From the NCBI RefSeq assembly GCF_003018255.1, contig NZ_CP027440.1: a stretch of DNA of 64,000 nt. One strand, written 5' to 3'. Positions 1 to 20,370 of this stretch are shown piece by piece (positions within the stretch are counted from its first letter, which is position 1; each line of letters begins with the position of its first letter). Both the position numbers and the translations under genes were made by a program. Source of the stretch: Escherichia coli. Lineage in GTDB: Bacteria > Pseudomonadota > Gammaproteobacteria > Enterobacterales > Enterobacteriaceae. The notes beneath the pieces were generated by a model that saw only the letters and a program-made list of their open reading frames with translations, was not told the DNA's origin and did not search any database.

Positions 1-1342
1 AGCAAGAGTCCGCATGAGCCTCGACACCCTGCCGGAGCCGCTGACGCAGCTTCATGCGCGACTGGCGGCGCTGGATATCGAGCGGGAGGCGATTGAGCAG
101 GACAGCGTGTTTTATCCCGAAACCAGCCCGGAGCGGCTGGCAGAACTGACCGATTTGCGTGATGAGCTGCAGGCAGAAGCCGGGCATCTGGAAGCGCAGT
201 ATCAGCAGGAAAAGGCACTGGTGCAGCAGATTATGACGTTGCGTCAGGAAGGAACAGACAGCTCTGAACTGCAACAGCAACTGCGGACGCATCAGGGCTT
301 TGCACCGCTGCTGGCGCTGGATGTGGACGCCCGCGCCGTCGCCACGGTGGTGGCGGACTGGACTGGCATCCCGCTCTCTTCCCTGCTCAAGGACGAGCAG
401 AGCGACCTGCTCAGTATGGAACAGAGCCTTGAAAACCGCGTTGTCGGGCAACGCCCGGCGCTCTGCGCCATCGCACAGCGGTTGCGGGCGGCTAAAACCG
501 GCCTCACGCCGGAGAACGGCCCACAGGGGGTATTCCTGCTGACCGGCCCCAGCGGCACCGGTAAAACCGAAACTGCGCTCACACTGGCCGACACCCTGTT
601 TGGCGGTGAAAAATCTCTTATCACCATCAACCTCTCCGAATATCAGGAGCCGCATACCGTCTCCCAGCTTAAGGGGTCTCCTCCGGGCTACGTTGGCTAC
701 GGTCAGGGCGGCGTACTTACCGAAGCCGTTCGCAAACGCCCGTACAGCGTGGTGTTGCTCGACGAAGTGGAAAAGGCGCACCGCGACGTAATGAACCTGT
801 TCTATCAGGTATTTGACCGGGGTTTTATGCGCGACGGCGAAGGCCGGGAAATTGACTTCCGCAACACCGTGATTCTGATGACGGCTAATCTGGGCAGCGA
901 CCACATCATGCAACTGCTGGAGGAAAAACCGGACGCCACGGACGCAGACCTGCATGAACTGCTGTATCCCCTGCTGCGCGAGCACTTCCAGCCTGCACTG
1001 ATGGCGCGTTTTCAGACGGTGATTTACCGCCCGCTGGGACAGGAGGCGATGCGCACCATTGTGGAAATGAAACTGGCGCAGGTGGTTCGTCGTCTTCATC
1101 AGCACTATGGGCTGGAAACGGAAATCAACGACAGCCTGTATGACGCGCTGACCGCCGCCTGCCTGCTGCCGGACACCGGTGCACGCAATATCGACAGCCT
1201 GTTGAACCAGCAAATCCTGCCGGTACTAAGTCAGCAGTTGCTGGCACAGCAGGCCGCGCACCGTAAACCAGCCCAACTACGGCTTGGCTGGGATGAGGAA
1301 GACGGGATTGTACTGGAGTTCGCTACGGAAGAGATGCAATAA
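1..1342 (+). CDS. tssH: ClpV/TssH AAA+ ATPase, C-terminal fragment (5' end lies outside the window)
   Basis: Reading frame is open to the window start. Translation has Walker A GPSGTGKTE and Walker B VVLLDEVEKAH typical of the ClpB/ClpV second AAA+ domain. Sits directly upstream of vgrG. Confidence 0.85.
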   Translation, partial: ARVRMSLDTLPEPLTQLHARLAALDIEREAIEQDSVFYPETSPERLAELTDLRDELQAEAGHLEAQYQQEKALVQQIMTLRQEGTDSSELQQQLRTHQGFAPLLALDVDARAVATVVADWTGIPLSSLLKDEQSDLLSMEQSLENRVVGQRPALCAIAQRLRAAKTGLTPENGPQGVFLLTGPSGTGKTETALTLADTLFGGEKSLITINLSEYQEPHTVSQLKGSPPGYVGYGQGGVLTEAVRKRPYSVVLLDEVEKAHRDVMNLFYQVFDRGFMRDGEGREIDFRNTVILMTANLGSDHIMQLLEEKPDATDADLHELLYPLLREHFQPALMARFQTVIYRPLGQEAMRTIVEMKLAQVVRRLHQHYGLETEINDSLYDALTAACLLPDTGARNIDSLLNQQILPVLSQQLLAQQAAHRKPAQLRLGWDEEDGIVLEFATEEMQ

Positions 1343-1353
1343 CGGAGGCTTTT

Positions 1354-3834
1354 ATGGGTATTCAGAATTTCGACCACTCACACCACAAGCTCAAAATTCG
1401 CGGCCTGAAAAGCCCGGTGGACGTGCTGACGTTTACGGGCCGGGAACAACTCAGCGCACCCTTCCGCTACGACATTGAATTTACCAGTACCGATAAAACC
1501 ATCGAGCCGGAGTCGGTGCTGATGCAGGATGGCGCATTCAGCCTGACGGCACCGCCGGTACAGGGAATGCCGGTACAGACTGCCCTGCGCACCCTGCACG
1601 GCGTCATTACCGGCTTTAAACATCTCTCATCGTCACAGGACGAAGCCCGTTACGAAGTGCGCCTTGAACCCCGTATGGCGCTGCTTACCCGCAGCCGCCA
1701 GAACGCCATCTACCAGAACCAGACGGTGCCGCAAATCGTCGAAAAAATCCTGCGCGAGCGGCACCAGATGCGCGGTCAGGACTTCGTGTTTAACCTCAAA
1801 AGCGAATACCCGTCCCGTGAACAGGTGATGCAGTACGGTGAGGACGACCTGACGTTTATTTCACGCCTGCTGTCAGAAGTGGGTATCTGGTTCCGCTTTG
1901 CCACCGACGCCCGGTTGAAAATCGAAGTTATCGAATTTTACGACGACCAGAGCGGCTACGAGCGCGGGCTGACGCTGCCGCTTCGCCATCCTTCTGGGCT
2001 GTTTGATGGTGAAACGGAAGCCGTATGGGGGCTGAACACCGCGTACAGCGTGGTGGAAAAAAGTGTCTCCACGCGGGACTACAACTACCGTGAAGCCACG
2101 GCGGAAATGACCACAGGCCAGCATGACGCCACCGGGGGCGATAACACCACTTACGGCGAAGCCTACCACTATGCCGACAACTTCCTGCAACAAGGCGATA
2201 AAGAGGCAGCGGAAAGCGGCGCGTTTTATGCCCGTATCCGTCACGAACGCTACCTGAATGAACAGGCCATTCTCAAAGGCCAGAGCACCAGTTCACTGCT
2301 GATGCCGGGGCTGGAGATAAAAGTTCAGGGCGACGACGCGCCTGCGGTGTTCCGCAAGGGCGTGCTGATTACCGGCGTGACGACCAGCGCGGCGCGTGAC
2401 CGCAGCTATGAGCTGACGTTCACGGCGATACCGTACTCAGAGCGCTACGGCTACCGTCCGGCGCTTATCCCCCGCCCGGTCATGGCCGGAACGCTCCCGG
2501 CGCGGGTCACCAGCACGGTGAAGAACGATATCTATGCCCATATCGACAAAGACGGGCGCTACCGGGTCAACCTCGATTTTGACCGCGATACGTGGAAACC
2601 GGGTTATGAGAGCCTGTGGGTACGCCAGTCGCGCCCGTATGCGGGAGACACCTACGGCCTGCATCTGCCGCTGCTGGCGGGAACGGAGGTCAGCATCGCG
2701 TTTGAGGAAGGCAACCCGGACCGACCGTATATCGCCGGGGTAAAGCACGACTCGGCGCACACCGACCATGTGACCATCCAGAACTACAAGCGTAACGTGC
2801 TGCGCACCCCAGCAAACAACAAAATCCGCCTCGACGATGAGCGCGGCAAAGAGCATATCAAGGTCAGTACCGAGTACGGCGGCAAGAGCCAGCTAAACCT
2901 CGGCCATCTGGTGGATGCCGGGAAACAGCAGCGCGGCGAAGGCTTTGAACTGCGTACCGATATGTGGGGCGCAGTGCGGGCGAAGAAAGGCATCTTTATC
3001 AGCGCCGATGCGCAGGACAAGGCTCAGGGTCAGGTGCGGGAAATGGCTCCGGCAATGGCAATACTGGATGGCGCACAGTCACAGATGAAGTCGCTGTCCA
3101 CTGATGCGCAGACGGCGAATGCCGATCCGGCAGATCTGTCATCACAGATAGCGCTGTTGCAGCAGAGTGTAAAAGATCTGACGCAGGCGGTGATCCTGCT
3201 AAGCGCACCCAAAGGCGTGGCGATCGCCAGCGGCGAGCACCTGCAACTGGCGGCGGCAAAGAATGTGATAGCCAACGCAGGCAACAACGCCGATGTCGGC
3301 GTGGTGAAAAATATGTTTATCGGCGTGGGACAGGCGCTGAGCGTGTTTGTGCGTAAAGCGGGCATCAAGCTGTTTGCCAATAAGGGCGCAATCTCGGTGC
3401 AGGCGCAGAACGACTTGATGGAACTGTTGGCGAAGAAGGAAATCATCATTACCAGTACCGAAGATGAAATTAAAATCACGGCGAAGAAAAAGATCACCCT
3501 TAACGGCGGTGGCAGCTACATCCGGCTGGATGCCTGTGGGATAGAAGCGGGAACGCCGGGAGAATATAACGTTAAGGCGGGATATTATGGGCGTAAGCCG
3601 AAGGCGAAGCTGACGCCGGAGCTGATGGCGTTTCCGGTGATTGAGGGTGGAGACTATTCTCGCTGTTTTAAATTTTTTGATGACGAAAATATCCCATATC
3701 GTAATGTTAAGTATATAGCCAATTTTATTGATGGAACAAAAAAGGAAGGTGTCACTGATGATGAGGGATGCACCGAAACATTTTTTAGTGATAAAGAAGA
3801 AGAAATTGAAATTGAGATTTTACTTGGTGTTTAA
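1354..3834 (+). CDS. vgrG: T6SS spike protein VgrG with C-terminal extension
   Basis: 826-aa ORF. The N-terminal two thirds read as a gp27/gp5-like VgrG (N-terminal block ...GLKSPVDVLTFTGREQLSAPFRYDIEFTS...). The last ~60 codons are AT-rich and unlike the core. SD AACGGAGG precedes the ATG. Confidence 0.85.
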   Translation: MGIQNFDHSHHKLKIRGLKSPVDVLTFTGREQLSAPFRYDIEFTSTDKTIEPESVLMQDGAFSLTAPPVQGMPVQTALRTLHGVITGFKHLSSSQDEARYEVRLEPRMALLTRSRQNAIYQNQTVPQIVEKILRERHQMRGQDFVFNLKSEYPSREQVMQYGEDDLTFISRLLSEVGIWFRFATDARLKIEVIEFYDDQSGYERGLTLPLRHPSGLFDGETEAVWGLNTAYSVVEKSVSTRDYNYREATAEMTTGQHDATGGDNTTYGEAYHYADNFLQQGDKEAAESGAFYARIRHERYLNEQAILKGQSTSSLLMPGLEIKVQGDDAPAVFRKGVLITGVTTSAARDRSYELTFTAIPYSERYGYRPALIPRPVMAGTLPARVTSTVKNDIYAHIDKDGRYRVNLDFDRDTWKPGYESLWVRQSRPYAGDTYGLHLPLLAGTEVSIAFEEGNPDRPYIAGVKHDSAHTDHVTIQNYKRNVLRTPANNKIRLDDERGKEHIKVSTEYGGKSQLNLGHLVDAGKQQRGEGFELRTDMWGAVRAKKGIFISADAQDKAQGQVREMAPAMAILDGAQSQMKSLSTDAQTANADPADLSSQIALLQQSVKDLTQAVILLSAPKGVAIASGEHLQLAAAKNVIANAGNNADVGVVKNMFIGVGQALSVFVRKAGIKLFANKGAISVQAQNDLMELLAKKEIIITSTEDEIKITAKKKITLNGGGSYIRLDACGIEAGTPGEYNVKAGYYGRKPKAKLTPELMAFPVIEGGDYSRCFKFFDDENIPYRNVKYIANFIDGTKKEGVTDDEGCTETFFSDKEEEIEIEILLGV

Positions 3835-3866
3835 AAATACTACCCTTAATTATTAAAGAGAAAAAA

Positions 3867-4601
3867 ATGAGCAAAAATGTAATATTAAGTAATGGGGAAA
3901 GAGAAAATCCTTCTCCGCTGATCTATGACAAGCATAAAAAGCACTGTATTTTTCGTACAAAGACATTACTTAGTGAAGAGAAAAAAGAAGACGAAAAATG
4001 TACTGTATCAGTTGTATTTATTGATCATGAGGGGTATATAAGAAATGCTGGAATTATAAAACACACAGTCCCTGAACTTGAAGAAGGTCGCATGCCTAAA
4101 ATTAATGCAATAATATTGCATAGAACAGATTCTTCAACAATAAATGGTACACTTGCTAGTTTTTCTAAAGGCATTGGAACTCATTTTATTGTTGAAAAAG
4201 ATGGTAATATATACCAGGCTGCAAGCCTATTTGTATATACCAGCCATGTGGGGAAGATAAAGTCTCGATGTAAGGAGGAAAAAACATGGTCGTCTGAAGA
4301 AAAAAAGAAAACAGAGGCATTCGGATGGAATGCTAAGAAGATACATGATCATGAAAAAATTAAACAATATCCTTATAGATATCCATATAATATGGACAGT
4401 GTTGGCATTGAGGTTATTGCATTATATGATAAAAAAAATAAAAAATGGGAGTCTGCTACAGACTCTCAAAAAAAATCAATTGAGAAACTTGTAGATATAA
4501 TAAAAAATATTTATGAGTTAGAAGATAGGGATGTTTATGAACATGATAAAATTAGTTATAAAACAGAAGGTGAAGGCGCTGATCTCTATAGTGTTAATTA
4601 A
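3867..4601 (+). CDS. Putative T6SS effector, Amidase_2 (PGRP/AmpD/T7-lysozyme-like) N-acetylmuramoyl-L-alanine amidase domain
   Basis: 244 aa with no signal peptide. Motifs ILHRTDS, THFIVEKDGNIYQ, SVGIEVIALYD and EHDKIS resemble Amidase_2 zinc-amidase signatures. AT-rich gene immediately downstream of vgrG. Confidence 0.55.
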   Translation: MSKNVILSNGERENPSPLIYDKHKKHCIFRTKTLLSEEKKEDEKCTVSVVFIDHEGYIRNAGIIKHTVPELEEGRMPKINAIILHRTDSSTINGTLASFSKGIGTHFIVEKDGNIYQAASLFVYTSHVGKIKSRCKEEKTWSSEEKKKTEAFGWNAKKIHDHEKIKQYPYRYPYNMDSVGIEVIALYDKKNKKWESATDSQKKSIEKLVDIIKNIYELEDRDVYEHDKISYKTEGEGADLYSVN

Positions 4602-4980
4602 TTTCTTTTTTTGTTCAAATAGTTACTCCGAAGAAAAAATAGAGATAATAAACATTAATAAACCAATATATATAGGTACCAATCAATCAGATAAGGTGCT
4701 TATTACTGCGTGTAATCATTGGGTGCTTAATTCTAGAGATATTATAGACATATTCAATCTAAGTATAAAGCATGATGATTATGGCGAAATAAACAGAATG
4801 TATTATTGGTTACCTTGTGAAATTAGAGGGAGACTAATGTATGACGGAATAGAATGGAGTTTTGTTATCAATGCTGCTGCAACAGCAATGTGGATGAGCA
4901 ATGATAAAGAGATTTACTGGGGATGCAATAAAAAAGCATGCGATAATTTCTTTTTATTACCATATGATGGGATGAGGTAA
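4543..4980 (+). CDS. Putative secreted (periplasmic) immunity protein for the upstream amidase
   Basis: Start is ambiguous (ATG 4531/4543 or GTG 4570) and overlaps the effector 3' end. N-terminus MIKLVIKQKVKALISIVLINFFFCSNSYS has the form of a Sec signal peptide. Small Cys-rich AT-rich ORF. Confidence 0.45.
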   Translation: MIKLVIKQKVKALISIVLINFFFCSNSYSEEKIEIININKPIYIGTNQSDKVLITACNHWVLNSRDIIDIFNLSIKHDDYGEINRMYYWLPCEIRGRLMYDGIEWSFVINAAATAMWMSNDKEIYWGCNKKACDNFFLLPYDGMR

Positions 4981-5085: not shown

Positions 5086-6300
5086 ATGCCCATCCGACTT
5101 AATACCATTCCCGACGCAGAACCCTATCCCGCACCGCCAGCCCGCATTAAATGGCTGTCAGCCTTATTACTGATGCTGTCTGTTGGTGTGGCAATAACCT
5201 CATTATTCGCCAGCGATGAACTGGCAAAAAACGGCCCATATTTCTGGGGGCTGGCCTGCGGCGTGCCTGCTTTTATCTGGTCACTGGTCGGTTCGGTGCG
5301 CTGGCTGGTATTTGTCACTCAACATATTCGTGCCGATGCCTGGAATCAACGTCGCGAAGAAGTCATTTTGCAGGAAACACGGCGGGGACGACGGGCGTTG
5401 CAGATACTCAGTTTTTCCGTACAAACCGCGCTGAATGGTGATTCCGTCGCAGAAACTACAACAGCATTTCTGGCGCGTCATCAGGTGTTGAATACTTACG
5501 CTGATTTGCGCGGAGAAGATACCGTGCGTCGCAGTGTCATTCCCGTATTAACCAATAAACCGGTTACCGGGCGTTTATCCGAAATTATTTCCCGCCTTTT
5601 TATTGATATCAGACCGCAATTGTTTCTGCTGCCCCCTGATTTTCATATCAACGTACTACTGGAAATTGATGCGCCGCTTTCAGGGGCCTCCGTGAGAACT
5701 ATCTGGCAGGACGAATGGCAAAAAGCCGGACTCCCCGAAGCCCGTCTGTTTTCTGCCCCGGAGCCGGGGCTGGCCGCCGTGGACGACTGGCTGGACAACT
5801 TTATTCAGGAAAAGGCCGTACTGCTGGTGATTTCCGTGCGTCTGGAACCGAAGAACCCGGAACGGACGGCAGAATCCGCCACCGCGCTGTTGCTGGCAAA
5901 CCGACTGACGCAAACCGCGCTGACGCCGCTGGCCCTGCTGCATCGTCCTGAACGTATCACAGATACGGAGATGATGGCGTCAGGCATTGCACAGGCGCTG
6001 GACTGGATGCCGGTGCAGCCAGATGCCATATCCGGCATGTGGACAGTCGAACTGAACAGGGAACAGCGCGCCTCGCTGCTGTCATCTAACCAGCCGTTTA
6101 CTCAGGAAGCCCTGATGTACGAGCTGGATGCCTTTCTGGGGTGCTCCGGACCGGCAGCGCCGTGGCTGTCCGTCGCTGCGGCAACGCTGGCGGCAATACA
6201 ATCACAACACCCCCAACTGACGCTCAGCGGCGTTCAGAACGGGCATTATTCATGGGCGACCATGGTGTCGCCATTCGTTTCCCCTCAGGAGGCATCATAG
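5086..6300 (+). CDS. T6SS-associated inner-membrane protein of unknown function (two N-terminal TM helices plus ~330-aa soluble domain)
   Basis: 404-aa ORF. Hydrophobic stretches WLSALLLMLSVGVAITSLFA and FWGLACGVPAFIWSLVGSVRWLVFV lie near the N-terminus. Composition is GC-rich like the T6SS core genes. Placed between the cargo module and tssM. Confidence 0.5.
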   Translation: MPIRLNTIPDAEPYPAPPARIKWLSALLLMLSVGVAITSLFASDELAKNGPYFWGLACGVPAFIWSLVGSVRWLVFVTQHIRADAWNQRREEVILQETRRGRRALQILSFSVQTALNGDSVAETTTAFLARHQVLNTYADLRGEDTVRRSVIPVLTNKPVTGRLSEIISRLFIDIRPQLFLLPPDFHINVLLEIDAPLSGASVRTIWQDEWQKAGLPEARLFSAPEPGLAAVDDWLDNFIQEKAVLLVISVRLEPKNPERTAESATALLLANRLTQTALTPLALLHRPERITDTEMMASGIAQALDWMPVQPDAISGMWTVELNREQRASLLSSNQPFTQEALMYELDAFLGCSGPAAPWLSVAAATLAAIQSQHPQLTLSGVQNGHYSWATMVSPFVSPQEAS

Positions 6301-6356: not shown

Positions 6357-9300
6357 ATGACCGTGGCCGTTGTGGTTGCGCTTTGCACGTTTATTCACCG
6401 TAAACCGGCATTGCTGGGCGTTGAACCGGGTAGTTCACAGCAAATGTACTGGATGGCTGGCGTGATTGCCGCAGGTGTGGTCTTTCTGATTATCATGGGG
6501 GTTTATCATCTGCTGAACCGCCACGCTGCCGTACAGAGCTTTGAACTCCACAGACAGCTTGCCGCCGGAGATGACTATCGGGCGGTGACGACAAAGAAAG
6601 CCGACAGCCGTCATCCGGCAATGGTGGAACTCGCCGCCTTCCTGCGCGACCGCTACGGCCCATTCTGGCGGCGTAAAATCCGCCTGCTGCTGGTGACCGG
6701 CGAGCCTGAACAGGCAGAGGCCATCGCGCCGGGGCTGACCGGGCAACACTGGCTGGAGGGCGACCACACGGTGCTGATATATGGCGGCAGGCCATCTACA
6801 GAGCCTGATGTCGCGCTACTGACCGCCTTAAAAAAACTGCGCCGCAGCCGTCCGCTGGACGGCATCATCTGGCCGCTGACAGAAGAACAGAGCCGCCAGA
6901 CGGCGCAACTCGACAAAGGCTGGCGCGAACTGATAAACGGCGGTAAGCGACTCGGTTTTCAGGCTCCACTCTATTTGTGGCAGGTCTGTGACAACGGTGA
7001 TTATCAGACCGGACGCCCCCTGCAAAGCGTCGGCTGCCTGCTGTCGGAACGCTGTACCCCGGAACAACTGGCTGCAATGCTGGAAGCACAAACCCTGCCG
7101 CTGACGGAACAGGGCATGTCGCAGCTGCTTACCGATAACCGCCATGATTTCCTGCTGCGTCTGGCCCATACCCTTGCAGAGCGGGGTATCGCTCACTGGC
7201 AAAGTATCCTGAAACCGCTGCTGGCAGGCGGCGCATTTTCCTCCCTGCGCCTGCGTGGCCTGATGTTCAGCCCGCCGCTTACCGCCGTACCGGAAGCCGC
7301 ACCTCATGCGTGGCTGCCGTCACCGGTCTGGGCGGGCGTGACCGGCGATAACGCGCGGGGTCGCACGGTGGGCTTTCCGTGGCTGCGTATCACGCTGATG
7401 TCTGCTGTCTGCGTACTGGCGATATGGGGGGCCGGAATGACGACCTCGTTCTTCGCCAACCGCGCACTTGTTCAGGAAACCAGCATCCAGACGGCGCGTG
7501 CACTCGATATCCGTCTGCCGCTGTCTGAACAACTGGTGGCGCTGCATACCCTGCAGGGTGAACTGGAGCGCCTGCAGTACCGTATCCGGGAGGGTGCGCC
7601 GTGGTATCAGCGTTTTGGCCTTGAACGTAACCAGCAACTGCTCGCCGCCGCCTTTCCCGGCTATGCGCAGGCGGCAAACCGGCTGGTGCGCGACGTGGCC
7701 GTTGACCATCTGCAACAGCAACTGAATGCCTTTGTCGCGCTGCCGCCCAATAGTCCGCAGCGTACCGCCACCGGCGAACAGCGCTATAAGCAGCTTAAGG
7801 CATTGCTGATGACTTCCCGCCCGGAAAAGGCCGACGCTGCCTTTTTCAGTACCACGCTGATGGCAGATGACCTGCGCTATGCAGGTGTACCGGAAGGTGT
7901 GCGTCAGAGCGTGTTGCCGTCACTGCTGACCTTCTGGATGGCGAATCTGCCGGAACACCCACAGTGGAAAACTTCGCCGCCACCGGAACTGACCGGCGCA
8001 GTGCGCAAAATCCTGCTGCGCCAGATTGGTGTGCGCAATGCCGAAAACACTCTCTACCAGAACGTACTGCAACAGGTGTCCCGCAACTACGCCGATATGA
8101 CGCTGGCGGACATGACCGGGGATACGCTCACCGAATCTCTTTTCAGTACGGAGCAGACGGTGCCGGGGATGTTTACCCGTCAGGCGTGGGAAGGACAGGT
8201 CAGGGAAGCCATCGAGCAGGTGGTGACGGCGCGGCGCGAGGAAATCGACTGGGTACTCAGCGACCGCCAGCAGGATACCTCTGCGGATATCTCGCCGGAT
8301 ATGCTGCGTAACCGTCTCACTTCACGCTACTTTACCGACTTTGCCGGAAGCTGGCTGGCGTTTCTCAACAGCATTCGCTGGAAAAAGGAAGACTCGCTCT
8401 CCGGCATTCTCGACCAGTTGACGCTGATGGCCGATGCCCGCCAGTCACCGCTGATTGCGCTGACAGACACCCTCGCGTGGCAGGCGGCGGCTGGCAGGGA
8501 AAACCGTGGCCTGTCAGACTCGCTGGCGAAATCGGCACAGGAACTGTTTAACGGCAAGGAGAAAACGCCGCAGCAATCCCGTGAAGGCGACGTGCCTGTC
8601 GGGCCGCTGGATAAAACCTTCGCGCCGCTGCTGCGGTTGCTTGGCGATAAGGCAGGAGGCGGCGACAGCCAGCTGAGCCTGCAGACCTACCTCACCCGAG
8701 TCACCCGCGTGCGCCTCAAACTGCAACAGGTGACCAACGCCCCTGACCCGCAGGAGATGACCCAGCAACTGGCGCAGACGGTCTTACAAGGCAAAACCGT
8801 TGACCTTACCGACACCCGCGACTATGGCAGCCTGATAGCCGCCAGTCTGGGTGAAGAGTGGAGTGGCTTCGGTCAGGCGCTGTTCGTCCGCCCGGTGGAG
8901 CAGTCATGGCGGCAGGTGCTGACGCCTGCGGCAGACAGCCTGAACCGCCAGTGGCAGCGGGCGATTGTCAGCCACTGGGATCAGGACTTCGCTGGTCGCT
9001 ACCCGTTCAAAGCCTCACAAAACGATGCCTCCCTCCCCCTGCTGGCGCAGTACCTGCGCGATGACGGGCGCATCAACCAGTTTATCGCCGCCAATCTTTC
9101 CGGCGTACTGAAACGTGAAGGCCGCTACTGGGTGGCTGACGCCATGAACACGCAGGGGCTGACAGTCAATCCGGACTTTATTCGCGCCCTGAACCGCCTG
9201 CGCGATGTGGCCGATACCGCCTTTGCCAGCGGCGATGCAGGGATACATTTTGAACTGCGGGCAAAACCGGCGCGCGACGTGATGAAGACGCATCTGGTGA

Positions 9301-9683
9301 TTGACGGGCAGGAGCTGGAATATTTCAACCAGAAGGAACGCTGGCAGCGTTTTAACTGGCCGGATGAACAGTGGCAACCCGGCGCATCGCTGAGCTGGAC
9401 CAGTACGCAGGCGATGGAACGCATACTGGCGGATTATCGGGGAAGCTGGAGCCTTATTCGCCTGCTGGAACAGGCGCAGGTGACACCGGTGGACAGCAGT
9501 ACCTTTAAAGTGGTGTGGAAAGCGCAGGACGGCCTGCCGCTGAATTACCTGCTGCGGGTTGAACAGGGTAAAGGGCCGCTGGCGCTGCTGGAACTGAAAA
9601 ACTTCCGCCTGCCGGGACAGGTGTTCCTGACCGGCAGGAGTATGAAGGATGCGGAAGAATACGGGGAAGACGCCGATGAGTGA
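6357..9683 (+). CDS. tssM: TssM (IcmF-family) T6SS membrane-complex protein
   Basis: ~1100 aa. Two TM segments at the N-terminus, a third around WLRITLMSAVCVLAIWGAGM, then a long C-terminal domain. Start is uncertain (GTG 6300 or ATG 6357; the track ORF begins at 6141). Stop overlaps the tssA start. Confidence 0.8.
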   Translation: MTVAVVVALCTFIHRKPALLGVEPGSSQQMYWMAGVIAAGVVFLIIMGVYHLLNRHAAVQSFELHRQLAAGDDYRAVTTKKADSRHPAMVELAAFLRDRYGPFWRRKIRLLLVTGEPEQAEAIAPGLTGQHWLEGDHTVLIYGGRPSTEPDVALLTALKKLRRSRPLDGIIWPLTEEQSRQTAQLDKGWRELINGGKRLGFQAPLYLWQVCDNGDYQTGRPLQSVGCLLSERCTPEQLAAMLEAQTLPLTEQGMSQLLTDNRHDFLLRLAHTLAERGIAHWQSILKPLLAGGAFSSLRLRGLMFSPPLTAVPEAAPHAWLPSPVWAGVTGDNARGRTVGFPWLRITLMSAVCVLAIWGAGMTTSFFANRALVQETSIQTARALDIRLPLSEQLVALHTLQGELERLQYRIREGAPWYQRFGLERNQQLLAAAFPGYAQAANRLVRDVAVDHLQQQLNAFVALPPNSPQRTATGEQRYKQLKALLMTSRPEKADAAFFSTTLMADDLRYAGVPEGVRQSVLPSLLTFWMANLPEHPQWKTSPPPELTGAVRKILLRQIGVRNAENTLYQNVLQQVSRNYADMTLADMTGDTLTESLFSTEQTVPGMFTRQAWEGQVREAIEQVVTARREEIDWVLSDRQQDTSADISPDMLRNRLTSRYFTDFAGSWLAFLNSIRWKKEDSLSGILDQLTLMADARQSPLIALTDTLAWQAAAGRENRGLSDSLAKSAQELFNGKEKTPQQSREGDVPVGPLDKTFAPLLRLLGDKAGGGDSQLSLQTYLTRVTRVRLKLQQVTNAPDPQEMTQQLAQTVLQGKTVDLTDTRDYGSLIAASLGEEWSGFGQALFVRPVEQSWRQVLTPAADSLNRQWQRAIVSHWDQDFAGRYPFKASQNDASLPLLAQYLRDDGRINQFIAANLSGVLKREGRYWVADAMNTQGLTVNPDFIRALNRLRDVADTAFASGDAGIHFELRAKPARDVMKTHLVIDGQELEYFNQKERWQRFNWPDEQWQPGASLSWTSTQAMERILADYRGSWSLIRLLEQAQVTPVDSSTFKVVWKAQDGLPLNYLLRVEQGKGPLALLELKNFRLPGQVFLTGRSMKDAEEYGEDADE

Positions 9684-11286: not shown

Positions 11287-12698
11287 TGGCAATGGGAACA
11301 GGCTACTTTCTGGTCAGGGGGGACAAAACCACCTGCGGCGGCAAAATTATTGAAGGCGCGGACGACCATACGATCATGGGTATCCCGCAGGCGCGGGATA
11401 TGGACCGGGTCACCTGCGGCAGATATCCGGGAATGTTTATTATTGTGGGCGGCGTTCCTGAAACAGATATTCACGGCAGGCTGATGGCGGGGACGCTGGA
11501 CAGTCAGAGCAGTTGCCCGTGTAAGGCACGGTTTATTGCGTCAATGATGGATGATACGTATGAGACGGATGACGGGGAAAGTGAAGCGGAACAACATGCG
11601 CAGTCGGCGAAAAAGGATCTGACTTCTGGTTCTGATTCATCCTCTGATGATGTAAAACTGGATTACAGAATTAAATTATCAGGTAATAAGATACTGACGC
11701 CACTGAATATACCTGATTATAAAGAAATGATTAGCGGTGGTAGTACGAAGAATACAGAAAAAATAGATTTTACCATCACAAATAAAGGCGATGAGGCTGA
11801 AGCGCTTTCTCTGGAAGTGCTTGATGGTAATGAAGTGATTTATAGTGAACGGCAGACCGGTAAATATTGTGATAAGGGAGAGCATGCCTGGCAATGGGAT
11901 GGCTACAGTAATCAAGGCATACTGGATACAACTAAGATAAAAAGCAAATCACTACTCGTAAGACTGATTGCTTTATGTGGTGATATGATGATAAAAGTTG
12001 ATTATCCATTGAAAAATGCTGCGAAAGAAGAAGAGTGGGTTGATGTAAAAGTTGACAGAAATAATAAAGTGGTCGATATAACATGGAGATTATCTGTTAA
12101 GGATAGCGGTACAAAAGGCAGTAACCCTGAGTTATCGCCAATACCTTATAGCGATTTAGTTAGTCTTACTAAAAATGGCGTGGAGTTTTACTGGTCACGA
12201 AATGGAAGTCGCGGCGGGGGAATTGGTGGTAATATCGTTACAGCGATTGGGGTTTTTAAAGTAAATGTAAAGGCTGAGATAAATATTACTCCATCTATGC
12301 GAACTTTTGATTTGATATCATCGTTAGATCCAGATATGCAGTCGTCGGTAAGTCTTTTGGGGTTTGAAAAAATATACCATAACTATGGTGGCTATTATAA
12401 TAACAGCAAGGATGAAATAAAGGCTCTTCTATATAGTAATGAAAGATATAAATGGGATAGTGCTCATGAGATGGGACATAAAGTTATGGATAAATATGGT
12501 TCTGAATCATGGACACATAAGGGGACATCCACGCGGGGTCAAAGTACCATCCCTAATACTCCAATGCCATCTTCAGGAGAGATTGATATAATGAAATATG
12601 CAGATAGCTATGCACCTGATAGATATAAGAGATTGGTCGCGGCAGATGAAGATGTTCAGGCATTGATCTGGTTGAGCAGGGTGAGTTTTAATGATTAG
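11286..12698 (+). CDS. PAAR-like domain protein with C-terminal HExxH (zincin-like) putative toxin domain
   Basis: N-terminus (GDKTTCGGKIIEGADDHTIMGIPQARDMDRVTCG...) resembles PAAR/DUF4150 spike-tip domains. C-terminal region is AT-rich and contains HEMGH. ATG overlaps the tssA stop (TGATG). Confidence 0.6.
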   Translation: MAMGTGYFLVRGDKTTCGGKIIEGADDHTIMGIPQARDMDRVTCGRYPGMFIIVGGVPETDIHGRLMAGTLDSQSSCPCKARFIASMMDDTYETDDGESEAEQHAQSAKKDLTSGSDSSSDDVKLDYRIKLSGNKILTPLNIPDYKEMISGGSTKNTEKIDFTITNKGDEAEALSLEVLDGNEVIYSERQTGKYCDKGEHAWQWDGYSNQGILDTTKIKSKSLLVRLIALCGDMMIKVDYPLKNAAKEEEWVDVKVDRNNKVVDITWRLSVKDSGTKGSNPELSPIPYSDLVSLTKNGVEFYWSRNGSRGGGIGGNIVTAIGVFKVNVKAEINITPSMRTFDLISSLDPDMQSSVSLLGFEKIYHNYGGYYNNSKDEIKALLYSNERYKWDSAHEMGHKVMDKYGSESWTHKGTSTRGQSTIPNTPMPSSGEIDIMKYADSYAPDRYKRLVAADEDVQALIWLSRVSFND

Positions 12699-12713
12699 AA
12701 TAATTGTTTTTTA

Positions 12714-13115
12714 TTGTTTTTTTTGAGTGGGTGTACTTCACAAAAAGAGTATTCCAATATAGTCAGGATTGAGAATAGATGCTCCTCAGATATCGATGTC
12801 TTTATTCAGGGATATGTTTCCGGTTCTACGCTGATTTATCAGCATAATATACACTTGCCAGTTGGTGATAGTGATGTATTAGTATATTTTTCCACGGCAG
12901 ATATTGATGATGGTTTTAAATATGAGGGGGCATTCATGATATATAAAGATAGCCGCGGTGAATTGGATTATCCATTCACCATTTCATTGTCAGGGCGCGA
13001 AAAAAAATTTGGGAAGAATGACTTAATTAGATTATCACGAGATATTTCAACAAAAGACGACAGAAAATACGGAGTTATAAGATATATAATCGACAGTCAG
13101 GAAATTTGCCCGTGA
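12714..13115 (+). CDS. Small AT-rich ORF, candidate immunity protein; 5' end probably disrupted by a homopolymer frameshift
   Basis: The track ORF starts at a TTG. An upstream ATG at 12691 (overlapping the PAAR stop) encodes MIRIIVFYCFF and then hits a stop after a T8 tract. One extra T would give MIRIIVFYCFFLSGC..., a lipoprotein signal with lipobox. Confidence 0.4.
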   Translation: MFFLSGCTSQKEYSNIVRIENRCSSDIDVFIQGYVSGSTLIYQHNIHLPVGDSDVLVYFSTADIDDGFKYEGAFMIYKDSRGELDYPFTISLSGREKKFGKNDLIRLSRDISTKDDRKYGVIRYIIDSQEICP

Positions 13116-13324
13116 TGTTTTAAGTTATTCGTTCACAATTATTAATTATTGCCTATTATGTAAGGTAAATTTAATTTGGTTCAGAAAAGACAAGAATACA
13201 TCATTATTAAAATCAATAAGTCAGCAACTATCCATAATATATTCACATAGAATAAATTTAACTATGATGTTACTTCTACACCTGCATGATATTCACTTTC
13301 AATGAAAGGAAGATAATCCCTCCG

Positions 13325-15085
13325 ATGGACGATCTAACCCAACGCTACTACGAAGCCGAAATGCGCTACCTGCGTGAAGCGGGGAAAGAATTTGCGCAGG
13401 CTTACCCCGACCGCGCCGCGATGCTCAATCTTGATAAACCCGGCGCACGCGATCCCTATGTGGAGCGCCTGTTCGAAGGCTTCGCTTTTTTAATGGGTCG
13501 CCTGCGTGAAAAGCTGGATGACGACCTGCCCGAACTGACCGAGGGGCTGGTCAGCCTGCTGTGGCCTCACTACCTGCGAACCATCCCGTCACTTTCCGTG
13601 GTTGAACTGTCGACAGATCACCGGCAGATGAAGCAGAGCGAAACACTGAGTAATTTTCAGGTATTGTCGCGTCCTGTTGGCGAGCGCAGAACCCGCTGTG
13701 TCTACAGTGCTACGCGGGATATCACGCTGCATCCGCTGGCGCTGCCGGACGTGTCATTGCAATATGAACCGGACGGGCGCTCGGTTATCCGTCTGCGCTT
13801 TGAATGCGGCCCGCTGGTTGGTGACTGGTCACAGATCGATCTATCCCGTTTGCCGCTCTATCTCAATGCCGACAGCCCGGTGGCCTGTGCGCTGCACCGG
13901 GCTTTAACGCTTGGCACCCAGCAGTTCTGGCTGCGTCTGCCGGGGCAGGAACGCCGTGTGCTGGACGCGCACTTTTCCCCGATGGGTTTTGATGACAATG
14001 ACCGACTGTGGCCAAAAGGCGAGTCGGCGTTCAGCGGCTACCAGTTGCTGCTGGAGTATTTCACCTTCCGCGAAAAGTTTATGTTTGTGGCGCTGAACGG
14101 GCTGGAGAACGTCATCTGGCCGGAAGGGATGAGCGGCTTTGAGATTGACGTGGTGCTGAGCGAGAACTGGCCTCACGACCTGCCGTTTGACAGCGATAAT
14201 ATCCGTCTGCACTGCGTGCCGGTCATCAACCTGTTCCCGCTGGAAGCCGATCCGTTACACCTTTCGCCACTGGAAAACGAATTTCTGCTGCGCCCGATGC
14301 GTATTCAGGACGGGCATACCGAGATTTATTCCGTCGACAACATTATTTCTTCGCGCCATACCGGCAGTCAGGCGTATGTCCCGTTTTCCAGCTTTCGTCA
14401 CCGGGGCGGGATGCTGCGCCACGATGCACCGGAACGCTATTACCATACGCGGGTTAAGCGCGGCCCTTCCGGCCTGCATGATACCTGGCTGATTCTGGGC
14501 GGCGATGCGTTTGATTCCGACCGGATGCTGGAGGATGAAACGCTCTCTTTAAGCCTGACCGGCACTAACGGACAGCTTCCCCGTAAGGCTTTACAGAGCA
14601 CGCTGCTTGATACGCCAGTTCATGCCTCACAGAACGTCCTGCGGGTGCGCAACCTGTGCGCCCCGACGCAGCCCTGTTATCCCCCGGCGCGTGACCGCTT
14701 CCACTGGCGGGTGCTCAGCCACCTCGGTTCTAACTTTCTTTCAATGATGGATAACGCCGAAATTCTGCGCGGCACGCTGGCGCTGTACGACTGGACCGAA
14801 AGCGAGATGAACCGCCGCCGTCTGTCGGCGATTGTCGACGTTCAGCACAGCCTGATACAGCGTTTTGAAAGAGGCTTTCTGCTGCGTGGCGTGGATATTC
14901 AGGTGACGCTGGACAGCACCGGCTTTGCCGGAGAGGGTGATATCACGCTGTTTGGCGAACTGCTGCACCGCTTCTTTGCACTGTATGCCGATATCCACTT
15001 ATTCACTCAACTGACCTTAATTCTGCAACCCACAGGAAAGTGCCTGCAATGGACAGAGCATCACAGCCAGCGCGTACCGGGCTGA
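13325..15085 (+). CDS. tssF: TssF (ImpG/VasA family) baseplate protein
   Basis: N-terminus MDDLTQRYYEAEMRYLREAGKEFAQAYPDRAAMLNL matches the conserved TssF N-terminal pattern. The track ORF begins 13 codons upstream at 13286. Confidence 0.8.
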   Translation: MDDLTQRYYEAEMRYLREAGKEFAQAYPDRAAMLNLDKPGARDPYVERLFEGFAFLMGRLREKLDDDLPELTEGLVSLLWPHYLRTIPSLSVVELSTDHRQMKQSETLSNFQVLSRPVGERRTRCVYSATRDITLHPLALPDVSLQYEPDGRSVIRLRFECGPLVGDWSQIDLSRLPLYLNADSPVACALHRALTLGTQQFWLRLPGQERRVLDAHFSPMGFDDNDRLWPKGESAFSGYQLLLEYFTFREKFMFVALNGLENVIWPEGMSGFEIDVVLSENWPHDLPFDSDNIRLHCVPVINLFPLEADPLHLSPLENEFLLRPMRIQDGHTEIYSVDNIISSRHTGSQAYVPFSSFRHRGGMLRHDAPERYYHTRVKRGPSGLHDTWLILGGDAFDSDRMLEDETLSLSLTGTNGQLPRKALQSTLLDTPVHASQNVLRVRNLCAPTQPCYPPARDRFHWRVLSHLGSNFLSMMDNAEILRGTLALYDWTESEMNRRRLSAIVDVQHSLIQRFERGFLLRGVDIQVTLDSTGFAGEGDITLFGELLHRFFALYADIHLFTQLTLILQPTGKCLQWTEHHSQRVPG

Positions 15086-16128
15086 CCGACCGGCTGGCCC
15101 CGGATATTGCGCGGATCAATTTTTACCGTTTTTGCCAGTTGCTGGAACAGAGCCCGCAGAACGCGCCGCTGGGCAGTACCGACAGCCCCGCCACCGATGC
15201 GGTGCGCTTTCGTCCTCATCCAGGTATGGGCTTTCCGGTCAGCGAGTTAAAAAACGTTGAACGTGACGTGGGCAATCCCGACGCGCCCCCCACGGTGCGC
15301 ACCACTTTTCTCGGCCTGTACGGCGTGGATTCGCCGCTGCCAACCGCCTATCTGGACTACATTACCCAGCGTCATGACGGACATGACGCAGTGATGGCGT
15401 TTCTCGATATTTTTAACCATCGCTTTATTACTCAGTACTACCGCATCTGGCGCAAATATAACTACCCGGCGTCGTTTGAAGCAGGTGCCGTGGATGACAT
15501 TTCCCGTTGTCTGCTGGGACTCATCGGGCTGGGTATTCCCGGCAGCGAGAACCATATCGCCACGCCGGTATCCCGTTTTCTGGCCCTGCTCAGCGTGATG
15601 CGCCTGCCGACGCGCACGGCGGAAGGCGTTACGGCACTGGTGGGACTGCTTGCCCCGCTGACGAAAGCGACGGTGGTGCCTCATGATCCGCAGCCTGTAA
15701 TTCTCCCGGCCCCTGCGGGTCTGTCAAAAAATTCACGCATCAGCCTGAAAACGCGAACGCTGCTGGGGCGTACCGGTACCGACGTCAACAGCCAGTTGCT
15801 GCTGAAACTGTATACCGAAGATGCCGCAGAAGCGCGTGGCTGGCTGCCCGGCGGGCAACTGCACAGCGATTTGCTGGTGCTGCTGCGCGTTTATCTGGGC
15901 TGGCGCTGTCAGGCCCGTCTGCAACTGACGCTGCCCGTCAGCCTGTTGCCTGCTGCCCGGCTGGGAAAACAGCGTGTACAGATTAGCCGTACCGGCATCC
16001 TTCGCGCCTCCTTTGCCGCGCCCGCGACCGGAACAGTGACGGTCAGTCTGGGGCGTTATCAGGGATTAATACCCGCTTTTTCCATTCGTAACAGGGAGAG
16101 TATGACTCATGTTTCCTATTCGTTTTAA
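15049..16128 (+). CDS. tssG: TssG baseplate protein
   Basis: N-terminal ...INFYRFCQLLEQ... is typical of TssG. ATG at 15049 follows SD AGGAAAG and overlaps the tssF 3' end. Confidence 0.8.
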   Translation: MDRASQPARTGLTDRLAPDIARINFYRFCQLLEQSPQNAPLGSTDSPATDAVRFRPHPGMGFPVSELKNVERDVGNPDAPPTVRTTFLGLYGVDSPLPTAYLDYITQRHDGHDAVMAFLDIFNHRFITQYYRIWRKYNYPASFEAGAVDDISRCLLGLIGLGIPGSENHIATPVSRFLALLSVMRLPTRTAEGVTALVGLLAPLTKATVVPHDPQPVILPAPAGLSKNSRISLKTRTLLGRTGTDVNSQLLLKLYTEDAAEARGWLPGGQLHSDLLVLLRVYLGWRCQARLQLTLPVSLLPAARLGKQRVQISRTGILRASFAAPATGTVTVSLGRYQGLIPAFSIRNRESMTHVSYSF

Positions 16129-16645
16129 ACGTCCGGCGTTGCTCTGTATGGCGATGCTGACGGTTGTTCTGAGTGGCTGCGGGCTGATTCAGAAAGTGGT
16201 GGATGAATCGAAAAGCGTGGCCTCAGCCGTTTTCTACAAACAAATCAAAATACTGCATCTCGATTTCTTCTCCCGCAGCGCCCTGAATACGGATGCGGAA
16301 GATACGCCGCTTTCCACGATGGTGCATGTCTGGCAACTGAAAACCCGCGAAGATTTTGATAAGGCGGATTATGACACCCTGTTTATGCAGGAAGAGAAGA
16401 CGCTGGAGAAGGACGTACTGGCAAAACACACCGTCTGGGTAAAACCTGAAGGCACGGCATCCCTGAATGTGCCGCTGGATAAAGAGACGCAGTTTGTCGC
16501 CATTATTGGGCAGTTTTATCACCCGGATGAAAAAAGCGACAGCTGGCGTCTGGTGATCAAAAGGGACGAACTGGAGGCCGACAAGCCGCGCTCGATTGAA
16601 CTGATGAGAAGCGACCTGCGACTGCTGCCTCTCAAGGATAAATAA
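16109..16645 (+). CDS. tssJ: TssJ outer-membrane lipoprotein
   Basis: 178 aa. Signal peptide with lipobox (MLTVVLSGCGL). Size and position between tssG and tssE. Confidence 0.8.
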   Translation: MFPIRFKRPALLCMAMLTVVLSGCGLIQKVVDESKSVASAVFYKQIKILHLDFFSRSALNTDAEDTPLSTMVHVWQLKTREDFDKADYDTLFMQEEKTLEKDVLAKHTVWVKPEGTASLNVPLDKETQFVAIIGQFYHPDEKSDSWRLVIKRDELEADKPRSIELMRSDLRLLPLKDK

Positions 16646-16648
16646 CCG

Positions 16649-17077
16649 ATGGCGACACCTTCCTTATATGAAATGCTGACGTTCAGTTTCAGCGGCGAGT
16701 TACCGCTGGAACAGGTCAGTGAGCGGGATCAGCTTATCCTTTCCGTGATGGACAATATGCAACGCATTATCAACTGTCGGGCAGGCACACTGGCGCATTT
16801 GCCGGATTACGGTCTGCCGGATCTCAGCCTGATCCATCAGGGGATGGCTGCGGGTATTCATAGCCTGATGCGCCAGATTGAAGAAACGCTGCTGCGTTAT
16901 GAACCACGCCTGAATCAGATACAGGTGGAGTTACTGCCCCAGCCCGGTCCGGGGCATCTTAATTACCTGATCCACGCGCAGCTTCCCGATACCGGCTGGA
17001 TACGCTTTGATGGCGTATTTTCTCCGGAAGGACGAATTGTTCTGCGTCATCTCAAACAACAGGAGCGGGCGTACTGA
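16649..17077 (+). CDS. tssE: TssE (gp25-like) baseplate protein
   Basis: 142-aa protein of gp25/GPW25 size class. Stop overlaps the next gene start (TGATG). Confidence 0.75.
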   Translation: MATPSLYEMLTFSFSGELPLEQVSERDQLILSVMDNMQRIINCRAGTLAHLPDYGLPDLSLIHQGMAAGIHSLMRQIEETLLRYEPRLNQIQVELLPQPGPGHLNYLIHAQLPDTGWIRFDGVFSPEGRIVLRHLKQQERAY

Positions 17078-18453
17078 TGGCAAGTAACGCGAATTTTATC
17101 AGCCAGTTCGTCATGGGCGGCGATCCCTGTACTTATAAGGAATCCGGTGAACTGCAGGCTGAAATGAGTAAACTGACTCACCCGGCCCGACCGGATGTGG
17201 ACTGGCGTCAGGTGGAAAAACTCTGCCTCGCGCTGTTCCGGCAAAATGGCGTGGAACTACAGACGCTGGTCTGTTACGTGCTGGCAATAACCAGACGGCA
17301 GGGGCTGGCAGGGATGGCAGACGGACTCGGTTCACTGGATATACTGCTCCAGCGCTGGGCTGACTTCTGGCCGGTACAGGTACATTCCAGAATATCACTG
17401 CTCAGCTGGGTCACAGAAAAAATGCAGCAGGCACTGAGAACGCTGGATATTCAGTATCAGGATCTGCCGCAGATCTACCGTTGTGTACAGCATCTTTCCG
17501 CCATCGAAACCACGCTGCAACAGTGTGAACTGTGGCATATGACGAAGCTGGACGTATTGTCCGGGCAGTTTCGCAATGCGGCTCTGCGTCTGGAACGGCT
17601 GGCGCCTCAGGGAGCGGAAACCATTATCACTCCCCCTGAATTACCCCGCCGGGAAATGAATCAACCGAAAAAGTCAGAGGAAAGTCCACAGCCGGTTTTT
17701 GCAACCAGATCCGTTCAGCAAAACGATAAGGATGCCAGTCCACCCGTGCCATCCCCTGAAATCTCCCGGCAGCGGACATGGCCGATATTTATGGCCGGAA
17801 TGGTTGTGATGGCCGGTCTCGGCGGAACAGGATTATGGGGCTGGTCGCAGCTTAATCAGCCGGACGCGCTAATCCAGCGAATACAACTGTCTGTCATGCC
17901 GTTGCCGCAGTCGCTGGAGAGCGGCGAACTGGCAAAGCTGGATGTAAAGGATAAGGCGCTGCTGGCTCAGGACAGAACAATTGCGGCAAGTCAGATGCAA
18001 CTGGAGCAGTTAAACAAATTGCCTGCCCGCTGGCCACTGGAGCAGGGATATCGCCAGCTACGCCAGCTTGATGCCCTGTGGCCGGATAATCCTCAGGTCA
18101 GGGCGCTGAACGCGCAGTGGCGCAAACAGCGGGAGCTGAGCGCCCTGTCTGCTGAGGCACTGAATGGCTATGCTCAGGCGCAGAGCCAGCTACAGCGCCT
18201 GTCGGCGCAGCTGGATGCACTGGATGAACGTAAGGGGAGATATCTGACCGGTTCGGAACTAAAAACGGCGGTGTACGGCATCCGGCAGTCGTTAAAGGAG
18301 CCGCCGCTGGAAGAACTGCTTCGGCAACTGGAAGAGCAAAAACAGACCGGAGAGGTTTCGCCAACGCTGTTGACGCAAATTGATACCCGGTTAAATCAGT
18401 TGTTGAATCGCTATGTCATTTTACTGGATACGAAGGTGGAACAAAGTCAGTAA
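17077..18453 (+). CDS. ImpA_N-domain, membrane-anchored T6SS accessory protein (TagA/VasL-like)
   Basis: N-terminal ImpA_N-like region, one hydrophobic helix (WPIFMAGMVVMAGLGGTGLWGW), and a C-terminal Q/L/E/R-rich region with heptad-like character. Last gene of the + strand cluster. Confidence 0.6.
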   Translation: MASNANFISQFVMGGDPCTYKESGELQAEMSKLTHPARPDVDWRQVEKLCLALFRQNGVELQTLVCYVLAITRRQGLAGMADGLGSLDILLQRWADFWPVQVHSRISLLSWVTEKMQQALRTLDIQYQDLPQIYRCVQHLSAIETTLQQCELWHMTKLDVLSGQFRNAALRLERLAPQGAETIITPPELPRREMNQPKKSEESPQPVFATRSVQQNDKDASPPVPSPEISRQRTWPIFMAGMVVMAGLGGTGLWGWSQLNQPDALIQRIQLSVMPLPQSLESGELAKLDVKDKALLAQDRTIAASQMQLEQLNKLPARWPLEQGYRQLRQLDALWPDNPQVRALNAQWRKQRELSALSAEALNGYAQAQSQLQRLSAQLDALDERKGRYLTGSELKTAVYGIRQSLKEPPLEELLRQLEEQKQTGEVSPTLLTQIDTRLNQLLNRYVILLDTKVEQSQ

Positions 18454-20368: not shown

Positions 20369-20370
20369 TT

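Follow-up and report, generated by a model that had tools for sequence, protein, structure and literature searches.

The first 18,453 positions of a 64,000-nucleotide (nt) stretch of Escherichia coli DNA (NCBI RefSeq assembly GCF_003018255.1, contig NZ_CP027440.1; the whole stretch is called the window below) carry the 3' two-thirds of an E. coli type VI secretion system 1 (T6SS-1) cluster. Genes in this part were called with NCBIfam and Pfam profile scans of the translated open reading frames (ORFs). According to the ORF list all large ORFs lie on the plus strand, and the scans gave the order tssH (cut), vgrG, cargo, membrane protein, tssM, tssA, PAAR cargo, tssF, tssG, tssJ, tssE and tagA. 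An earlier reading of the DNA letters alone (the original prediction) had proposed the same order, and each gene was confirmed by the profile scans. The features are listed here with their coordinates in the window; start positions given by, or in the style of, the Prokaryotic Genome Annotation Pipeline (PGAP) are indicated.

2..1342, plus strand: C-terminal 446 codons of tssH/clpV (TIGR03345, 5.8e-156, profile positions 408-849 of 852)
1354..3834, plus strand: vgrG/tssI spike, 826 amino acids (aa) (TIGR01646, 1.7e-138)
3867..4601, plus strand: cargo effector 1, a 244-aa Amidase_2 protein (PGRP/AmpD-type zinc N-acetylmuramoyl-L-alanine amidase; PF01510, 3.4e-11)
4531..4980, plus strand: putative immunity protein 1, 129-149 aa depending on the start codon, overlapping the amidase stop; N-terminus MIKLVIKQKVKALISIVLINFFFCSNSYS, a Sec-type signal sequence
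5086..6300, plus strand: accessory gene, 404 aa, N-terminal transmembrane (TM) helical hairpin and ketosynthase/Tla3-like domain (PGAP name: KPHS_23130 family T6SS system protein)
6357..9683, plus strand: tssM (ImcF-related), PGAP-style start 6357 (TIGR03348, 8.6e-77)
9649..11286, plus strand: tssA, PGAP start about 9676 (TIGR03362, 1.4e-140)
11286..12698, plus strand: PAAR effector 2, 470 aa (PF05488)
12691..13115, plus strand: candidate immunity lipoprotein 2, frameshifted, with a run of 6 T at 12707-12712 where intact alleles have 7
13286..15085, plus strand: tssF (TIGR03359, 2e-173)
15040..16128, plus strand: tssG (TIGR03347, 6.8e-77)
16109..16645, plus strand: tssJ lipoprotein (TIGR03352, 1.6e-22; lipobox LSGC)
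16649..17077, plus strand: tssE (TIGR03357, 4.3e-25)
17077..18453, plus strand: tagA, last gene of the cluster (PF06812, ImpA_N, 3.2e-11; PF12486, VasL, 5.2e-39)

Core genes and genomic site of the cluster

NCBIfam equivalog models scored above their cut-offs for tssA, tssF, tssG, tssJ and tssE, VgrG was recognized by a domain model, and TssM aligned to TIGR03348 across profile positions 433-1167. The annotation with T6SS profile models that had been suggested as a check on the original prediction thus returned the genes that were expected. Of the 13 core genes of a canonical type i system, seven (tssI/vgrG, tssM, tssA, tssF, tssG, tssJ and tssE) are present at full length, and tssH as its C-terminal half. 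Since the TIGR03345 alignment covers only profile positions 408-849, tssH is cut by the window edge; its uncut counterpart in genome NZ_AP045072 measures 2646 nt. The last gene of the cluster encodes an ImpA_N-TM protein in which the hydrophobic segment WPIFMAGMVVMAGLGGTGLWGW lies between the ImpA_N and VasL domains, and by this architecture we identified it as TagA. It is like TagA of the Sci-1 system of enteroaggregative E. coli (EAEC) in both domains, in the hydrophobic segment and in its last-gene position; no difference was seen, and its function is assumed by homology. The EAEC protein is a sheath stopper and clamp (Santin et al. 2018, cited in PMC6730261), which is non-essential and raises efficiency (PMC6730261).

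Several neighboring genes overlap at their stop and start codons: tssM/tssA by 8 nt, the PAAR effector and its immunity gene by 8, tssF/tssG by 37, tssG/tssJ by 20 and tssE/tagA by 1. The overlaps reported in the original prediction are therefore real, with lengths of 1 to 37 nt, while the single long operon that it derived from them is still something that we infer, from the overlaps and the shared strand. Internal promoters could lie in the AT-rich cassettes. A promoter and terminator consensus scan of the cluster gave no excess over the shuffled expectation, and an Rfam scan gave no match inside the T6SS cluster. With respect to base composition, the core genes have a GC content of 0.56-0.62, compared with about 0.50-0.55 for the chromosome farther right, which agrees with the GC-rich character that had been ascribed to the cluster; excepted are the cargo stretches at about 3650-5080 and 11580-13290, where GC content is 0.26-0.44.

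The locus is collinear with the cluster of strain UTI89 at the same chromosomal site. TssM is 90% identical overall to its UTI89 counterpart (residues 1-100 being unalignable), and for VgrG the identity is about 97% as far as residue ~560, beyond which the two proteins diverge. Because of this collinearity and these identities the T6SS-1-type assignment of the original prediction is right. The clusters of UTI89, CFT073, LF82 and EAEC 042 have been named T6SS1 (PMC6730261). When the upstream part is taken from NZ_AP045072, the order becomes tssBCKL-tagL-hcp-clpV-vgrG-[cargo]-tssM-tssA-[PAAR]-tssFGJE-tagA, as in E. coli T6SS-1 (Sci-1 of EAEC 042, and the metV-island clusters of UTI89, CFT073 and avian pathogenic E. 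coli (APEC)); the site, from three tRNA-Met genes to amiC, is likewise shared, and core proteins are at least 90% identical to those of UTI89. The cluster of E. coli 042 belongs to subtype i2, and both the variable region after vgrG and the PAAR genes after tssA have already been described (PMC9134191). Our assignment of the window locus to subtype i2 combines that class with the identity of at least 90% to UTI89 proteins. UTI89 differs in its payload, with a Tle4-like lipase, Tli4 and a small PAAR protein in the first cargo slot and another, 525-aa PAAR toxin in the second, where the window has the amidase and a PAAR-zincin fusion. In addition, a separate small PAAR gene is missing from the present locus, and the alleles for the accessory membrane protein and the TssM hairpin are not those of UTI89.

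To place the cluster in the population we compared it with 5426 complete E. coli genomes. The 18.5-kb cluster DNA matched 1348 of these, with a coverage of at least 80% in 846, and the best match was NZ_AP045072 (99.1% identical). The upstream gene table was read in this one genome, where the order is mltA, three tRNA-Met genes, tssB, tssC, tssK, tssL, a gene for an OmpA-family protein (TagL), hcp and tssH. The genes that the original prediction had expected upstream (tssB, tssC, hcp, tssK and tssL) are thus found directly upstream in the sole genome examined for them. Downstream of the T6SS, NZ_AP045072 has genes for a phosphoglycerate dehydrogenase, a KpsF-like isomerase, a PatB-like lyase, a phosphotransferase system (PTS) EIIC component and a PRD protein (low GC), followed by amiC and argA, and the right-hand genes of the window match these. 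On the K-12 map amiC comes directly after metV; since the T6SS block lies between the three tRNA-Met genes and amiC, which adjoin in K-12, we place it in the metV genomic island. By these comparisons the cluster is the standard, already known T6SS-1 of the E. coli metV island, carried by about a quarter of complete genomes. Public databases already hold six of the seven proteins that were looked up, the exception being the frameshifted immunity ORF of slot 2.

The T6SS-1 region was also seen in two records labelled E. coli DH5alpha, in one case with an IS3 insertion. A T6SS is not expected in K-12 derivatives, and these records may represent mislabelled strains.

Two payload cassettes

The first cargo slot follows vgrG and encodes the amidase. 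In addition to the Pfam match, residues H85, H226, K232 and E236 are invariant in 16 homologues, and these conserved zinc ligands with a catalytic Lys make up the pattern of AmpD/T7-lysozyme-type zinc amidases. The spacing of 10 between H226 and E236 equals that between H154 and D164 in AmpD. As a metal-dependent Amidase_2 protein the effector is not of the Tae1-4 type, whose members are papain-like/NlpC-P60 amidases with Cys and His that cut inside the peptide stem. A PDB sequence search with the amidase returned only a spurious lectin repeat, and the exact protein is already public. The amidase VT1 of E. coli vgrG islands is reported to cleave the MurNAc-L-Ala bond and to be unrelated to Tae1-4 (Ma et al. 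2018, summarised in PMC6730261). Like the VT1/VTI1 pair, the window amidase stands directly after vgrG in an E. coli T6SS1 and has the same specificity class, so that it is probably of the VT1 kind, a likeness drawn from the review's description (PMC6730261). The protein encoded at 4531-4980 had no family match in profile scans that included NCBIfam and PADLOC; its position and signal peptide suggest that it provides immunity to the amidase. PADLOC defence models matched none of the cargo or accessory proteins.

Slot 1 is variable. Its DNA was found in 79 of the 5426 genomes, against the 1348 with the cluster. Besides the lipase cassette of UTI89, strains of ST131 and O103:H2 have an SLT transglycosylase with an immunity gene, and in strain DETEC-S792 (NZ_CP116067) three vgrG modules stand in tandem, ending with one that holds the amidase of the window. 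These modules (locus L005, 1662-15695) are DUF4123-DUF3304-Tle1, a vgrG with a frameshift plus two hypothetical genes, and the vgrG-amidase pair; an arrangement of three vgrG-cargo modules indicates that cassettes accumulate through vgrG duplication. Beyond the cassette, DETEC-S792 is 100% identical to positions 5086-6700 of the window.

The left border of this cassette falls inside vgrG. The window protein and the VgrG of an SLT-carrying O103:H2 strain share 97% identity as far as residue ~763, the difference being confined to the last ~60 residues. GC content drops from 0.58 to 0.28 across 3300-3900, falling at about 3650. Because the divergence and the GC fall coincide, the exchange unit consists of the VgrG tail, the effector and the immunity gene, with the cargo-specific tail (the last ~60 aa, about 3643-3834) as part of cassette 1. 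Such a unit would fit direct binding of cargo to the VgrG C-terminus, as is known for EAEC VgrG1 and Tle1. Relative to UTI89 the variable block is larger, and runs from VgrG codon ~560 through the accessory membrane protein to TssM codon ~100. No repeats flanking the cassettes were found.

The second slot holds a 470-aa effector that consists of a PAAR domain (aa 1-95), a disordered linker, an immunoglobulin (Ig)-like sandwich and an HExxH zinc-peptidase-like alpha/beta domain (HEMGH at aa 394-398). The predicted structure of the whole protein is confident, with a predicted local distance difference test (pLDDT) value of 87, and the N-terminal part has the PAAR motif domain with its conical beta fold. 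In 33 homologues A393, H394, E395, G397, H411, E432, D434, M436 and Y438 are invariant, which points to an HExxH zinc site that is followed by another His and accompanied by a conserved Met. The canonical metzincin motif (HExxHxxGxxH/D) is absent, since the sequence HEMGHKVMDKY is without Gly at +8 and His/Asp at +11, and the next invariant His is H411. No Pfam model covered the toxin part, with weak Peptidase_M10 matches in three family members; a PDB sequence search gave nothing, and a Foldseek search of the model against the PDB was dominated by Ig-like matches to glycosidases and was uninformative for the toxin domain. The toxin-domain family comprises 366 clusters at 50% identity among 1.84 billion representatives. 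Its members come with PAAR in Enterobacteriaceae and Pseudomonas, and those of Limnobaculum, Hahella and Bacteroidota lack it. An HExxH toxin domain that is fused to a spike component and accompanied by periplasm-facing immunity is also found in the C-terminal domain of Pseudomonas aeruginosa VgrG2b, in Rhs-Tox-MPTase4 and in Rhs-Peptidase_M91 (PMC6899460, PMC8867033, 10.1101/2024.03.05.583533). In the literature on Salmonella, Enterobacter and Shiga toxin-producing E. coli and in large-scale effector surveys we found only Rhs-M91, Rhs-MPTase4, VgrG2b-like and Tox-HopH1 effectors, none with the PAAR-Ig-HExxH architecture.

In Tenacibaculum mesophilum (locus L009, 5514-9800) a PAAR-less homologue of the zincin directly follows a Bacteroidota-type TssD/Hcp gene. 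The neighborhood of TssD/Hcp supports a role as T6SS toxin in an unrelated delivery context. Seven small genes (110-142 aa), three of them with CarboxypepD_reg-like domains, come after the homologue and look like an immunity array.

Slot 2 is polymorphic as well, as is clear from the other fusions of its carrier and from the 525-aa toxin of UTI89. For its DNA, 79 genomes show an identity of at least 99% and most others one of about 82%, and in further ones it is partly or wholly replaced; the toxin region is present at a coverage of at least 80% in about 865 complete genomes. Elsewhere the same PAAR N-terminus is joined to Ntox44, pyocin S/colicin E3 or DUF2235. The PAAR domain itself is GC-rich core sequence, and behind it the GC content falls at about 11580 and does not recover before tssF, so that the junction just after the PAAR domain, inside the carrier gene, coincides with the GC drop. 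The proposal of two variable cargo slots in the original prediction accordingly held, for slot 1 by its restricted occurrence and for slot 2 by its diverged alleles and alternative toxins. The sequence comparisons refine it in one respect: the cassette junctions are located within carrier genes (VgrG codon ~763, and after PAAR) and are not intergenic.

The gene behind effector 2 is intact in NZ_CM125665 and in DETEC-S792, where it overlaps the PAAR stop by 8 nt and encodes 141 aa that begin with MIRIIVFLLFFLSGC and include a lipobox; it would be the immunity gene of this slot. In the window, the frame opened by the ATG at 12691 closes at 12726; a TTG at 12714 starts the long ORF anew, which runs to 13115 without a signal peptide. 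In NZ_AP045072 the T-run deletion in this gene is not that of the window, and the amidase gene carries three homopolymer indels. In that record (locus L001, 18860-19600 and 27700-27730) RefSeq gives a truncated 208-aa amidase and an 86-aa fragment because of single-base homopolymer indels; these are probably long-read errors, and call for caution with the annotation of the record. Since such indels also occur there, we suspect that the run of six T in the window is a sequencing error, the alternative being a real mutation with loss of the exported immunity protein. Immunity protein 2 had no Pfam family and no similarity to the small proteins behind the Tenacibaculum homologue.

The accessory membrane protein

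Between cassette 1 and tssM lies the gene for the 404-aa protein, which the original prediction had listed as a membrane protein. Some newer RefSeq annotations use the name "KPHS_23130 family T6SS system protein"; the only paper found under the name KPHS_23130 lists it as an entry of a virulence database. The protein has no NCBIfam model, and no Pfam match, DUF2875 included, was obtained even at E <= 10. We found the gene in 1007 genomes; Salmonella, other Enterobacteriaceae and Pseudomonas also have relatives. The UTI89 counterpart shows no BLASTP similarity, and profile comparison finds the two to be homologous (probability 97.5%, E 8e-12, 339 columns). An AlphaFold model (pLDDT 84.5) begins with a helical hairpin at the N-terminus, after which comes an alpha/beta domain. 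This domain takes the fold of the Tla3 crystal structure, a match that is nearly as strong as those to ketosynthases and that ranks near the top of the list in sequence identity (16%). The family has no invariant Cys or His, and so lacks the catalytic Cys and the His-His or His-Asn pair of ketosynthases; ketosynthase chemistry is therefore unlikely, and we rejected an active ketosynthase. We also rejected a split-off N-terminus of TssM, to which the protein has no BLASTP similarity.

Tla3 (PA0259, DUF2875) loads Tle3 onto VgrG2b in P. aeruginosa. The window protein shares its ketosynthase fold, but has a TM hairpin and a single domain, whereas Tla3 is described as cytoplasmic and tandem; it also has no DUF2875 match in Pfam and is not tied to one cargo. 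By its model, the membrane protein of the original prediction can be specified as a conserved accessory gene product with a Tla3/ketosynthase-like fold. Because this non-catalytic fold resembles that of the adaptor Tla3, we infer that the protein assists at the membrane without catalysis, perhaps in the loading of VgrG-borne cargo.

Proposed working and alternative explanations

In a T6SS, TssJ, TssL, TssM and TagL anchor the machine, and VgrG is surrounded by a baseplate of TssE, TssF, TssG and TssK. As a cap, TssA primes the growth of tube and sheath, and TagA captures the distal end as a sheath stopper. Contraction pushes Hcp, VgrG and PAAR into a neighbor cell, after which the ClpV ATPase recycles the sheath. 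Taking all data together, we consider it very likely that positions 1-18453 represent the distal part of a chromosomal T6SS-1 (Sci-1-like, subtype i2) in the metV island, and that this system is a contractile, contact-dependent antibacterial weapon with two payload cassettes. Next to the gene identities, synteny, population variability, cassette boundaries, conserved metal-site residues and predicted folds that were observed or computed, we propose the following delivery routes, substrates, immunity roles and adaptor role, in addition to the operon. The conserved GC-rich genes would provide the apparatus and the two low-GC cassettes the payload. The amidase would most likely be carried on its matching VgrG tail into the prey periplasm, and there cut the MurNAc-L-Ala bond of peptidoglycan, while the PAAR-zincin fusion would sit at the VgrG tip and most likely cleave a substrate in the periplasm or the cell envelope. 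The prey periplasm is the probable site of action of the two toxins, because both immunity proteins carry export signals (a signal peptide and a lipobox, respectively). The 404-aa protein would help to load VgrG-borne cargo at the membrane complex.

A more specific proposal goes further, and we put it forward tentatively, as less likely than not. It takes the 404-aa protein to be a membrane-anchored dead-ketosynthase adaptor, a distant relative of Tla3, with two deeply diverged alleles matched to two diverged TssM hairpins, and takes the PAAR-fused Ig-HExxH domain to be a new zincin toxin family that is Hcp-linked in Bacteroidota and may have a specific envelope substrate. At the TssM membrane complex, such an adaptor would pass small cargo held by the VgrG tail on to the spike.

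Several observations weigh against the antibacterial weapon and its proposed adaptor. The upstream half (tssB, tssC, tssK, tssL, tagL and hcp) of this strain's own cluster lies outside the window. The 404-aa allele is 93-100% the same whether the cargo is the amidase or the SLT enzyme, and the protein is therefore not a cargo-specific adaptor as Tla3 is. The pairing of this allele with a TssM hairpin, seen in two haplotypes only, may be plain linkage. Finally, the frameshifted immunity gene 2, if real, would fit poorly with an active periplasmic toxin. This frameshift would also suit the idea that the cluster is a silent or decaying relic, and not a working weapon in this strain, as would the ISEc12 element that splits tssM in ST131 strain MB1341 and lies within the matched region of several avian strains, the frameshifted vgrG in DETEC-S792 and the frameshifted immunity gene in O103:H2. 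The ISEc12 copy (IS21 family) was located at 8272-14190 of the MB1341 locus (L006), and its presence in ST131 and avian strains indicates that T6SS-1 is often inactivated in successful lineages. For the window, however, we regard a relic as improbable: its visible core ORFs are of full length with end-to-end model matches, neither effector ORF is interrupted and their catalytic residues are conserved, and the lone frameshift is in a homopolymer, with the different errors of the closest genome looking like sequencing noise. Lower still do we rate the chance that the T6SS serves mainly virulence towards an animal host, with the PAAR-fused peptidase aimed at a eukaryotic protein. The island is typical of extra-intestinal and avian pathogenic strains, many matches being APEC or human isolates; adamalysin-like folds act on eukaryotic substrates, and VgrG2b is a T6SS metallopeptidase that acts across kingdoms (PMC6560169, PMC6899460). 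Yet small genes with export signals after both effectors are the signature of antibacterial effector-immunity pairs, the amidase substrate peptidoglycan is bacterial, and antibacterial activity has been assigned to T6SS1 and pathogenesis mainly to T6SS2 (PMC6730261).

For the 404-aa protein, the choice is between the adaptor and either a structural partner of the membrane complex, paired with the TssM TM hairpin, or a thiolase-superfamily enzyme. Its own hairpin and its position directly before tssM would suit a non-adaptor, as would the two deeply diverged 404-aa alleles that accompany two diverged TssM N-termini: the O103:H2 haplotype has the same 404-aa allele as the window together with a TssM N-terminus (residues 1-100, with the TM hairpin) that is 96% identical. 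An enzyme is at odds with the missing invariant Cys and His, and any non-adaptor with the Tla3 match that almost equals the ketosynthase matches at 16% identity. As to a structural partner, two haplotypes cannot tell interaction from linkage, and BLASTP similarity to TssM is lacking. We therefore see these non-adaptor roles as possible but doubtful, and keep the accessory role in cargo loading as our working interpretation.

Right after the T6SS, a second low-GC block (0.39-0.42) was found on the minus strand at 18754-24039, before amiC and argA. Its genes encode a phosphoglycerate dehydrogenase-like protein, a short KpsF/GutQ-like isomerase (198 aa), a PatB-type C-S lyase, a maltose/glucose-type PTS EIICB and a PRD-domain regulator, and the block looks like a sugar/amino-sugar utilisation module in the same metV island. 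Farther along the window, at 52762-53045 on the minus strand, are the tandem small RNA genes OmrA and OmrB (Rfam RF00079; 96.6 and 86.1 bits), which are ordinary core-genome content.

The cluster itself adds nothing new to what is known of E. coli T6SSs, and its value is that of a clean example of nested cassette exchange, in which toxin and immunity genes are swapped along with the carrier piece that holds them, be it the VgrG tail or all that follows the PAAR domain. Of modest interest are two abundant E. coli proteins without experimental function, the PAAR-zincin toxin and the Tla3-like membrane protein, both of which would be easy targets for a T6SS laboratory.

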